From NCBI RefSeq assembly GCF_033153115.1, contig NW_026889792.1, positions 2,542,001 through 2,606,000 of the forward strand: 64,000 nucleotides of DNA, written 5' to 3'. Position numbers and translations under genes: made by a program. Each line of letters opens with the position of its first letter. Position 1 is the stretch's first letter. The notes under the pieces were generated by a model. It worked only from the letters and a program-made list of their open reading frames with translations. It was not told the DNA's origin and did not search any database. Below are positions 7,501 to 10,374 of the stretch, one piece after another. Source of the DNA: Saccostrea echinata. Lineage: Eukaryota.

Positions 7501-8039
7501 AAGGGAAAAAATCTGTGAAATAACACAGCAATTTAAAATCGTTAGATTTCGTTGATAAATTTATGGACAGCAGCAAAAGATATTGGTATTCATTTGTAAA
7601 GGCAAATTTATATAACCCCAGAACAACATGATAACCTCATGACTTTGACCTTGGATTTGACCTACTTTTGAAAAACTTTAACATTGGCCATAACTTTTGA
7701 ACAAGTGGTGCTAGGGCTTTCATATTTCACATATGTATTCCTTGTGACAAGACCTTTCTTTGGGTACCAACATTTATGACCTCAAACTTTGACCTTTGAC
7801 CTTGGAGTTTGACCTACTTTTAAAATACTCTCACTCTGCCATGAGCTGCCACATGGGGCATCAGTGTTTTACGAACATATCTTGTTATTTTTTATACATT
7901 GAATCAGCAATTTAATGCTTTCATTTGTTTTTTTCCCCTCATTTCTTTATAATTTTTTCAGAATCCAGGCTTTGATTTCTCTGGTGCAGAAGTTTCTGGA
8001 AATTATCACAAAGGTGGACCTAAATTACCAGATAATTAA
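4512..8039 (+). CDS. NUDCD2: NudC domain-containing protein 2 (CS/p23-like co-chaperone). Exons 4512-4697, 5927-5975, 6146-6297, 7962-8039
   Basis: MAHFDERSGYIPCKTDWGQWWQTNEEVYIEV...GDLLNTIHADESVWTLEDKKFLRVCL...NCWDSLLVGQYRTDPWTFDQMEKKATLQKFQQENPGFDFSGAEVSGNYHKGGP; collinear with vertebrate NUDCD2, GT-AG introns in phase. Confidence 0.95.
5350..5760. repeat. Interspersed element with ~140-bp tandem units (gaccaaacttgcatggatgatgcatctagggatg family)
   Basis: The same unit recurs at 22730-23950 and in reverse at 52560-53090. Confidence 0.6.
6450..7885. mobile_element. HINE/Helentron-associated element with TGACCTT-rich tandem units, interrupted by a Tc1-like MITE
   Basis: Repeated ttccttgtgacaagacctttc...tgaccttgacc units at 6480-6870 and 7635-7830; 3' end gccacatggggcatcagtgtttt...tcttgtt. 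Confidence 0.6.
7020..7496. mobile_element. Tc1/mariner-type MITE (TA-CAGTAAAAC... family)
   Basis: Starts TA|CAGTAAAACTTGTT, ends AACCAAGTTTTATG|TA; homologous copy at 38019-38465. Confidence 0.6.
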
Positions 8040-8133
8040 GAGATTAAAATATTGAATGCTTTTGCTTTAATTACTGATTACTGATTAGTGATTACTGGAT
8101 AAAAGCAGAATTACAAACTTGTGAGATTTAAGT

Positions 8134-9450
8134 ATGGATGAGGAGGAGGATATATCTTGTCCTAAGTGCTCGTTGACTTTAAACACTCCATACATCCTGT
8201 GTAAACAATGCTCTGGAGCAGTGAAAATTTGTCTTCAATGTTTCTCTAAAGGGGCAGAGTTTGGAGACCATGAGAATGACCATTCCTACACCATTGTCAG
8301 GGATGACTTCCCTTTGTTTGAAAACTCTTGGTCTGCAGCAGAAGAGCTATCTCTTCTGAAAGTAATGGCTGATTGTGGCTATGGCAACTGGCAGGATGTG
8401 GCCCAACGAATGAGAGTGAGGGGAAAGACTGAAGTGGAGAAACATTATAACAAGTGGTTCATAAACCAGGCTAACCCCGAGCTGCCACAATTTCCCGAAG
8501 CTGACCTCGAGAGATTTCCATGTCCAGTTGTGTACAAGCTGTGTGATGATCCTCCCCGATATCCTGACTCATCACAGATCTTCCAGTTGATGGGAGGTTA
8601 CATGGCGGGGAGGGGTGATTTTAATGTGGAGCATGACAATTTCATGGAACTGGAGCTACGAGCTATTGATTTCAATGAAGCACCAATCCAGGAAAGAGAT
8701 GACTTGGAAGAAAAGTTGAAATTTGAGGTCATAGATGTTTATCAGAACTGTTTAAGAGATCGATGGTGGAGAAGGAAGATTATTCGTAAATACGGATTAA
8801 TCAACATCAGGAAACACCGGCTTGATAATGGGATGTATCCTACTAGATTAAAGGACCTTTTGGATCAGCTCAGGCCTTTTATGAGACTGTGTAGCCCTGA
8901 AGGTTTTGATAAATTTTCACAAGCTCTTAATTTGCAATTTGAATTAAGGAAAAACATTCAGAAGCTAATAGAATGTAGGGAAAATGGCATAACCAAACAG
9001 AGGAGCATTAAAATATTCAGAGTTCTGAAAAGTCGTAGAAATGAGATGAAATCGAGAAGGCATTTGTTAGATGATATCCTTGTTCATATGAAGGATGAAG
9101 CTGCATGTCAGTCATGGCTTCACAAACAAGCAGTTCTGGATACAATGTCAAAAGGGACAGCAAATCTACCCCTACCTTCAGCCCCTAGAAGGTCAGCCCC
9201 ACCCATGGATATTGTGGGGCTGCCCGGCTATGAAAGGCTTTCAAAGAAGGAGCGAGAATTATGTGCTAGCGTGAGACTTGTACCGGAAGCTTACCTGGAA
9301 TTTAGAGAAATCCTTGTGGGAGAATGTAAACGAAATAACTTCCTTCGATTACAGCAAGCCAGAACATTGATTAAAATAGATGTAAACAAAACCAGGAAAT
9401 TGTATGATTTTCTAGTATCTGAGGGCCTTATTACTAAAGAACCAAGCTAA
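8134..9450 (+). CDS. TADA2A: Transcriptional adapter 2-alpha (ATAC complex subunit), intronless CDS, 438 aa
   Basis: ZZ zinc finger (CPKC...CKQC...CLQCF...HENDHSY), SANT (WSAAEELSLL...GYGNWQDVA), ADA boxes, SWIRM C-terminus RRSAPP...LIKIDVNKTRKLYDFL typical of ADA2a; AATAAA at 9557-9562. Confidence 0.95.
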   Translation: MDEEEDISCPKCSLTLNTPYILCKQCSGAVKICLQCFSKGAEFGDHENDHSYTIVRDDFPLFENSWSAAEELSLLKVMADCGYGNWQDVAQRMRVRGKTEVEKHYNKWFINQANPELPQFPEADLERFPCPVVYKLCDDPPRYPDSSQIFQLMGGYMAGRGDFNVEHDNFMELELRAIDFNEAPIQERDDLEEKLKFEVIDVYQNCLRDRWWRRKIIRKYGLINIRKHRLDNGMYPTRLKDLLDQLRPFMRLCSPEGFDKFSQALNLQFELRKNIQKLIECRENGITKQRSIKIFRVLKSRRNEMKSRRHLLDDILVHMKDEAACQSWLHKQAVLDTMSKGTANLPLPSAPRRSAPPMDIVGLPGYERLSKKERELCASVRLVPEAYLEFREILVGECKRNNFLRLQQARTLIKIDVNKTRKLYDFLVSEGLITKEPS

Positions 9451-10374
9451 TGCTTACTGGCATTATGGTTTAAATTTGTACAGAATTTACTGCTTGAATA
9501 ACAAAAAATTGAATCATAAATTAGAAATTCTGAATGTTGTGCTTGTTGAACCTAGTAATAAAAATATTGGTAGTACAAAATGATTTCAGCATTCTTGAAT
9601 AATTTCAAATTTGCATTCTTTTCACCATTGTGAAGTATTTTTGCATGTTAAAGGTTACATACACACAGATAGACACACACACGTATATAAATGCATATAC
9701 ATGATATAATATATACAAGTAACTGTAGGTGGAGCAGTTGGGGTTGTCAAATTGACATATGATCATAAACCTGTATTATCAATATATACCAGTATACAAA
9801 TATGTATCCAGAACATTTCATGTTAACTGTACATGCAACTAAGTAAAATGAATACCATACAGTCTGTATGTAAAGTATTCAAAATTATTCATTTGTGTAA
9901 ACTTATGGCACTATGCCTTTTTTTGAAAGCTTTGATAAGATATTCACTTAACTTTATAATAATTAGTCTTATTAGACATTAACCATATAAATTTTTTTTG
10001 TTTTGTTGTTGTTGTTGTTTTTTTTTTTTTTTTTTGGTTAATAATCTTAAATTTTTGTTAAGCGATGAGATATTGTGAAAAAATATATTCTCTCCTCATT
10101 ATATAATGGACATTTATCTTCTGTACATTTTTTGTTACATACCAAACATGTTCTGTTGTTTCTCTCTAAAGGAATTCTTTGACCAATATTATTTTTCACA
10201 GATTCATATCTACCTTTTTCAGTTCTTAAGACATGAGCACTTATTCTAAATCTACGTTAAGATTTTCTTATTTCATAAGATTTGATATATATATATAGTT
10301 TTCCATTGTAAAATTTTCTTTATAAAACATAAAATAAGTAGTAAGTTTTCCCGAGTGAAGTCCTTCTTCACATT

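Follow-up and report, generated by a model that had tools for sequence, protein, structure and literature searches.

The window analysed here, a 64,000-nucleotide (nt) stretch of the oyster Saccostrea echinata (assembly GCF_033153115.1, contig NW_026889792.1, positions 2,542,001 to 2,606,000 of the forward strand), contains a locus in which two unrelated genes, NUDCD2, which encodes a chaperone, and TADA2A (Ada2a), whose product is a histone-acetyltransferase adaptor, follow one another on the plus strand, the second lying wholly within the last exon of the first. It is likely that one messenger RNA (mRNA) of this locus encodes two full-length proteins. The best explanation, to which we give an even chance, is a dicistronic NUDCD2-TADA2A mRNA, with TADA2A predicted to arise from reinitiation or internal entry in a 94-nt spacer. 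All coordinates below are window positions.

Eight public runs from six studies were examined out of 19 listed, X8 being the only one on record as RNA. In all eight, one contig crosses the NUDCD2 stop and the TADA2A start with at least 31 letters on each side of the spacer. Seven of these bridging contigs include at least 31 letters of spliced NUDCD2 exon 3 (18 letters in X8). Contigs that run from exon 1 to beyond the TADA2A stop were found in three runs (X1, X3 and X4; two samples, one study); they are 1,966-2,189 letters long and extend from NUDCD2 exon 1 through the spliced exons to 9580-9799. In X5, which represents another organism and another study, a contig links exon 3 to 8354. X6, X7, X8 and X10 (four studies of a more distant relative) each provide one contig that reaches from 7960 into TADA2A and whose sole upstream loose end is NUDCD2 exon 3. 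The complete tables of these four runs contain no joints or loose ends within the spacer. With three of eight runs covering the whole and eight of eight the spacer, a processed transcript over both complete open reading frames (ORFs) is likely at contig level, and the shared transcript that had been proposed from the sequence is borne out to this extent. Since a search of the assembly matched NUDCD2 at the window locus only, the spliced contigs are not explained by a processed NUDCD2 copy. Contig depth past the NUDCD2 stop rises about 1.6-2.4-fold (X5, X7, X8, X10); as per-contig depth cannot rank gene parts, this was not used as evidence.

NUDCD2 comprises 154 amino acids (aa) in four coding exons. 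Exon 1 (4512..4697) opens with an ATG in strong context (A at -3, G at +4) and shows 93% identity to named Saccostrea NUDCD2; its cover by RNA contigs starts at 4499-4552. Exon 2 (5927..5975, 49 nt) is connected to exon 3 (6146..6297) by joint 5973/6144, and exon 3 to the last exon by joint 6295/7960, both with GT..AG at cut +2 in four of four runs; letters of exon 3 form the sole loose end before 7960 in four further runs. The exon 1-2 joint was deduced from 49 record letters between the listed pieces. The shared last exon (7962..9583) consists of the C-terminal 25 codons and stop of NUDCD2 (7962-8039), the spacer, the entire TADA2A ORF and the 3' untranslated region (UTR), and is spanned by single contigs in X1 (7960-9583), X3 (7960-9799) and X4 (7960-9580). 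The spacer (8040..8133; 94 nt, 73% AT) separates the NUDCD2 TAA (8037-8039) from the TADA2A ATG (8134-8136). The TADA2A ORF (8134..9450) is intronless, starts in strong context, encodes 438 aa and stops at 9448-9450. The shared transcript probably has its main poly(A) signal in the AATAAA at 9557..9562, contigs ending at 9583 (X1), 9580 (X4) and 9569 (X5); the X3 contig extends to 9799. The landmarks given by the sequence-only reading (the NUDCD2 stop, the TADA2A start, an ATTAAA, a mini-ORF and an in-frame TGA) were all correct on rechecking. It had also stated that this TGA excludes a fusion protein. The codon is indeed present in the TADA2A frame at 8122-8124, upstream of the ATG, and in addition the 94-nt spacer, not being divisible by 3, puts the ORFs in different frames; readthrough could not join them even if the TGA were absent. 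A RefSeq NUDCD2 isoform of Magallana (P0158, 133 aa) terminates just past exon 3 (compare 6297-6310), which suggests a transcript stopping before the shared last exon.

A shared promoter could also serve TADA2A by exon skipping. In this main competing account, which is possible but in our view unlikely, a minor isoform would splice a non-coding first exon (donor 4366) directly to 7962 and thus become a TADA2A-only mRNA, and in the major isoform TADA2A would be no more than an untranslated 3' tail of NUDCD2. The coding part of NUDCD2 exon 4 (7962-8039) contains no ATG; the resulting leader would hold just the weak AUG at 8056, and ordinary cap-dependent scanning would be enough. A putative 105-nt 5'-leader intron (4366..4470, plus strand; donor AAG/GTATAT, acceptor TTTTCAG), predicted from the sequence only, implies such a short non-coding first exon. 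Its donor is the same hexamer as the used exon-1 donor, and splicing there would remove the upstream ATGs at 4407 and 4452; contigs of X1, X3, X4 and X5 begin at 4499 or later and give no cover of this exon. Insect Ada2a uses shared-first-exon splicing (excerpts of PMC4528330, supplement file 6; also metagenome loci). Identical TADA2A proteins appear under two RefSeq accessions each in Mizuhopecten, Mytilus trossulus and Haliotis, pointing to leader isoforms, but Haliotis TADA2A is unlinked and this sign is therefore not specific. A rare isoform could, moreover, be lost in contigs. On the contrary side, exon 3 alone was found upstream of acceptor 7962 in all eight runs among the matches listed; a second partner occurs in none of them, one run having a depth of about 330. 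Three exons must be skipped, and one of the eight linked species listed, Argopecten, has a Met in frame within the exon-4 peptide.

Another possibility is that transcription of TADA2A starts, weakly, at a site of its own within NUDCD2, in exons 2-4 or at the end of intron 3, and that the assembler merged the overlapping mRNAs. We consider it improbable. An unbranched contig can merge overlapping mRNAs, and in Drosophila the downstream cistron is often served by an alternative promoter of its own (PMC4528330, in excerpts); a patch in intron 3 (7150-7599) has an observed/expected CpG ratio (CpG o/e) of about 1.0-1.2. However, contigs join across intron 3, and the depth of bin 7912-8145 is wholly explained by the spliced contig in four of four runs. 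No NUDCD2-only 3' end was seen in contigs of the runs examined. For the final 400 nt of intron 3 (7562-7961) CpG o/e is 0.09, and across exon 4 and the spacer it is 0; at 4230..4400 it reaches 1.37 (0.54 for the window), this interval being a candidate bidirectional promoter of LARS1 (minus strand) and NUDCD2-TADA2A (plus strand). These values agree with the previous impression that no separate promoter is evident near exon 4. According to excerpts of PMC3840415, measurements of methylation in C. gigas are correlated with CpG o/e. Taken from base composition, the CpG pattern favours a single upstream promoter shared with LARS1.

LARS1 is situated upstream, head-to-head with NUDCD2. Its coding exon at 3959-4132 (minus strand) matches cytoplasmic leucine-tRNA ligase, and its contigs hold 43-61 more letters in bin 4168-4401. 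The starts of LARS1 (minus) and NUDCD2 (plus) are at most about 420 nt apart (3959-4515) in a CpG-rich patch, and three housekeeping genes may share one bidirectional promoter. What we take to be YY1-like and E-box-like motifs are found within 3959-4515. A two-codon upstream ORF (4494-4502), in frame with NUDCD2, ends 9 nt 5' of its ATG.

Two further routes to TADA2A can be judged from the reading frames. Leaky scanning past the NUDCD2 start of a dicistronic mRNA, shown for green-algal bicistronic loci (excerpts of PMC11291117), seems very improbable here. Both systems would make two proteins from one nuclear mRNA (predicted in the oyster), and the majority of out-of-frame AUGs in the oyster are in weak context. 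In contrast to the algal genes, as the excerpts describe them, the oyster lacks a weak first AUG and AUG depletion: the NUDCD2 AUG is strong, and nine AUGs precede that of TADA2A with no depletion (five out-of-frame seen versus 5.7 expected, P 0.45). The other route is a cryptic splice that uses the AG at 8124-8125 as acceptor, with its donor in exon 2 or in the last exon itself; the product would be an in-frame NUDCD2-TADA2A fusion. This AG lies 8 nt before the ATG and fits a phase-1 donor, but its pyrimidine tract is poor (7/14), and joints in 7890-8560 number zero in four of four runs (X6, X7, X8, X10). Furthermore, a CS domain occurs in none of the best 120 of 203 homologues, and the 30 mollusc TADA2A N-termini listed all have the usual start. 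We regard such a fusion as barely credible.

We return to the dicistronic reading and to the spacer on which it depends. The sequence-only reading had offered alternative polyadenylation at the weak ATTAAA (8043..8048) as a way to express TADA2A and had pointed to a four-codon mini-ORF (8056..8070; ATG 8056, stop 8068-8070); neither element fared well. As a main route, polyadenylation at 8043 was rejected: contigs pass the site unbroken, the hexamer is changed at 8047 in X6, X7, X8 and X10, and no loose end occurs there in these runs. It would in any case yield at most a NUDCD2-only mRNA, which leaves TADA2A production unexplained. The mini-ORF was likewise discarded as a conserved control element, its ATG being changed at 8056 in the same four runs; by eye, the differences listed for them create another ATG further along the spacer. 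In the more distant relative, the spacer is a net 8 letters longer. A feature beyond those recognized earlier is a predicted stem-loop at 8057..8107 (plus strand; -20 kcal/mol, z -3.3, one of 200 shuffles as good), whose region has the lowest z (-4.3) of 63 windows across the shared last exon. The Rfam search assigned it to no family; its sole match was a chance one (E 0.7), and a selenocysteine insertion sequence (SECIS) or other known RNA element was rejected on this ground.

By their protein sequences the two genes are NUDCD2 and, more probably than TADA2B, TADA2A. The TADA2A ORF contains the Pfam domains ZZ_ADA2 (PF25299), Myb (PF00249), TADA2A-like_3rd (PF22941) and SWIRM (PF04433), all above cut-off, and its SWIRM domain matches human Ada2-alpha 2aqe with E 2.6e-31. 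Its best named relatives are bivalve TADA2A proteins, with 95% identity to that of Saccostrea cucullata. A tree places it among bivalve TADA2A; this was a quick search of 45 rows, midpoint-rooted, with TADA2B absent and Zootermopsis, Timema, Oedothorax, Nucella, Batillaria and Gryllus omitted. NUDCD2 has a single CS domain (Pfam), about 154 aa and high identity to named NUDCD2. Selection on the TADA2A ORF is purifying: 19 of 22 listed differences from the more distant relative, and six of six from the X5 organism, are at third positions. Among the differences listed (40 of 80), all 14 gap letters relative to the more distant relative fall in the spacer and none in the TADA2A ORF. By sequence comparison, purifying selection and recurrence in other bivalves lift the ORF and its neighbourhood above chance.

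We also asked whether TADA2A has a second, intron-containing copy, as the sequence-only reading had advised. None was found in the assembly by three protein queries (the full-length protein, its C-terminal 63 residues and an outgroup protein resembling that of mussels), each with one match, the locus at 8134, nor by the Pfam model; genome searches of one assembly, possibly incomplete, give lower bounds. The ZZ_ADA2 model had four matches, one other being a distant ADA2-like gene with several exons on contig C2 (30182100-30186700; L005, L089), with exon breaks near residues 55 and 86, like the intron-rich TADA2A locus L069. We take this paralogue to be TADA2B from its motifs; comparisons with PF24533 and PDB did not settle the name.

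We wondered if the two genes also occur together in other animals. Models of NUDCD2 and TADA2A are neighbours or on one contig in all seven pteriomorphs for which both were retrieved and in none of 11 other spiralians; Mytilus, Pinctada, Ylistrum, Mizuhopecten and the heterodont clams, where NUDCD2 was not retrieved, are outside this count. The models are consecutive in S. cucullata (XP_062608744/745), C. virginica (XP_078326486/487), Argopecten irradians (XP_069131528/529) and Tegillarca granosa (KUTeg_024060/024061), two apart in Pecten maximus (XP_033743999/744001) and four apart in Ostrea edulis; in Magallana gigas they are on contigs of equal size. All 11 non-pteriomorphs (Sinanodonta, two Haliotis, three Octopus, Patella, Batillaria, Lymnaea, Bradybaena and Tubulanus) have them on separate contigs. 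The gene neighbourhood thus recurs in other bivalves and reaches scallops and ark clams, with which the NUDCD2-TADA2A arrangement looks to be shared as judged from gene models. The 13 pteriomorph TADA2A proteins form one supported set in the quick tree of 45 rows (SH-like approximate likelihood ratio test, SH-aLRT, 99), which fits a single event in the pteriomorph stem. The pteriomorph orders diverged in the Palaeozoic. Two TADA2A models (P0263, P0264) exist for Tegillarca granosa, two loci apart (KUTeg_024058 and KUTeg_024060) and identical at 433 of 436 residues; they represent a tandem duplicate or an assembly haplotype.

The intronless state of the oyster gene can be polarized with metagenome loci. 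In 50 of 80 such loci, the last exon has its AG acceptor precisely 3 nt ahead of the Cys377 codon. Their best hits, by which alone the taxa were assigned, include Acropora, a mammal, Phallusia, Paralvinella and Mya. Being common to 50 animal loci, the intron at codon 375/376 is ancestral, and the oyster state is derived, which upholds the supposed loss of introns. Of 35 loci that appeared continuous, the acceptor is nevertheless present in five (alignment overrun), and the remaining 30 are a mixture of arthropod-like genomic loci, probable transcripts and distant ADA2s. NUDCD2 lies beside TADA2A in none of the 80 loci, among which there is no recognisable pteriomorph locus. The intronless TADA2A is likely a retrogene replacement, to judge from gene structure: it is intronless and its ancestor bore introns, and an intron-containing parent is absent from the assembly by the lower-bound search. 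Intron loss in place combined with rearrangement, instead of retroposition, may also have led here; TADA2A is unlinked from NUDCD2 in 11 of 11 non-pteriomorphs. Any poly(A) remnant or target-site duplication would probably have decayed over such a time. On a contig of 3.9 kb, an octocoral-like TADA2A (L008:346-1617, best hit Xenia) has no interruption, and introns are present in the Acropora-like loci L081-L085; it may be a transcript or else reflect a third, independent loss of introns.

Under the dicistronic reading, reverse transcription of a TADA2A mRNA in the pteriomorph stem would have placed a copy in the NUDCD2 3' UTR, and the parent gene with its many introns would have been lost. One promoter would drive the two-gene mRNA, and NUDCD2 would be translated first, from its strong AUG. 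A fraction of 40S subunits, retained or recruited, possibly with help of the spacer hairpin, would start at the strong TADA2A AUG, and TADA2A output would be below that of NUDCD2. Both stops are in the last exon. With no exon junction behind the NUDCD2 stop, established decay rules predict that the mRNA escapes junction-dependent decay and survives; this escape would in turn keep TADA2A intronless and lock the gene pair together. The 94-nt gap is inside the range of exclusively polycistronic Drosophila loci (-34 to 319 nt; PMC4528330, in excerpts).

Several points weigh against this reading. Short-read contigs cannot show single molecules and lose rare isoforms, and of the runs examined only X8 is on record as RNA. 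Beyond the oysters with contigs, linkage rests on accession order and contig sizes, not on sequence, and shows neighbourhood but not strand, distance or intron state; older C. virginica accessions of the two genes are 2,688 apart. The single copy of TADA2A depends on a lower-bound search of a possibly incomplete assembly. Primary sequence of the spacer is weakly constrained, with at least 13 substitutions and 14 gap letters in close relatives, and the predicted hairpin overlaps a short tandem repeat (8070-8097). Finally, reinitiation would have to follow a 154-codon ORF with stop and start 94 nt apart, and known cases are closer: according to excerpts of PMC10275272, reinitiation after long ORFs usually needs extra elements near overlapping stop and start codons.

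Comparison with known systems clarifies what is unusual here. In the excerpts of PMC4528330, 159 dicistronic gene pairs are given for Drosophila in FlyBase, 45 of them exclusively dicistronic, with gaps of -34 to 319 nt, and access to the second ORF is left open (internal ribosome entry site, resumed scanning or other). The oyster locus resembles these in having two non-overlapping ORFs of unrelated genes on one processed mRNA, a short gap and a downstream ORF in need of internal initiation or resumed scanning. It differs in belonging to a mollusc and in joining two full-length housekeeping genes that are apparently kept together across three bivalve orders, the oyster case being known at contig level. 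Calicivirus termination upstream ribosomal binding sites (TURBS) and SART1 likewise place a second ORF after a long first one, and SART1 reinitiation requires structure downstream of the stop, where a structure is predicted in the oyster as well; their stop and start codons overlap or are adjacent (PMC10275272, in excerpts), unlike those of the oyster, 94 nt apart on a cellular mRNA.

In insects, Ada2a is located within intron 1 of Rpb4 and shares its first coding exon (21 residues) by alternative splicing (excerpts of PMC4528330, supplement file 6, and PMC7413394). The arthropod-like loci L012, L019-L021, L023 (980-3409) and L024 correspondingly have Rpb4 exon 1 before and other Rpb4 exons after Ada2a. 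In both cases the same intron-poor passenger gene rides on the promoter of a housekeeping gene. The oyster TADA2A, however, is behind the host stop in the last exon, with NUDCD2 as host and an ATG of its own, and NUDCD2 residues are present in none of the 30 mollusc TADA2A N-termini listed, that is, there is no shared first coding exon. Different host and different build, an intron plus shared coding exon as opposed to a 3' UTR plus private ATG, support the proposal that Ada2a hitch-hiking arose independently of the insect case. Rpb4 is more divergent in L022 and L023 (79% to Timema, versus 92-98% in L012 and L019-L021), and L024 is divergent too. L022 and L023 may come from non-insect arthropods, which would extend a structure that FlyBase calls insect-only.

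Retrogene replacement and orphan retrogenes are also known, for example amphioxus SYCP1 (excerpts of PMC5803294 and PMC3548309). There, too, a single-exon copy replaces an intron-rich parent and borrows the promoter of a neighbour. For SYCP1, 5' exons of its own arose from a bidirectional promoter, whereas TADA2A follows an intact host ORF within one exon. Among the matches listed, no report of the NUDCD2-TADA2A locus or of bivalve nuclear dicistronic genes was found in open-access literature. Dicistronic mRNAs and retrogene replacement are thus already known; that literature yielded no account of these two genes as a pair, of how old the pair appears to be in bivalves or of Ada2a having been captured repeatedly.

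Elsewhere in the window, highly repeated elements occupy parts of NUDCD2 introns 1 and 3 (5570-5800, 6400-6860, 7440-7860), and many RNA contigs match them. Broken frames at 10540-11223 and 12975-14151 (minus strand) have no Pfam match. Presumably they are ends of non-LTR (long terminal repeat) retrotransposon proteins.

Our fullest proposal is tentative, its probability falling somewhat short of even: a two-protein mRNA would date from the ancestor of oysters, scallops and ark clams, with hairpin-aided reinitiation after a 154-codon ORF supplying the sole TADA2A, and together with insect Rpb4/Ada2a this would make two captures by different mechanisms. If it is true, gene-level RNA sequencing counts, RNA interference or CRISPR directed at either gene in oysters or scallops would affect both. 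The locus would offer a natural, old, single-copy test case for how, on a nuclear mRNA, animal ribosomes gain access to a second long ORF, in a phylum for which the literature searches made gave no such case, and its short spacer with one hairpin is simple to place in a reporter. One chromatin adaptor would then have lost its introns and promoter and hitch-hiked on a housekeeping gene in two lineages.

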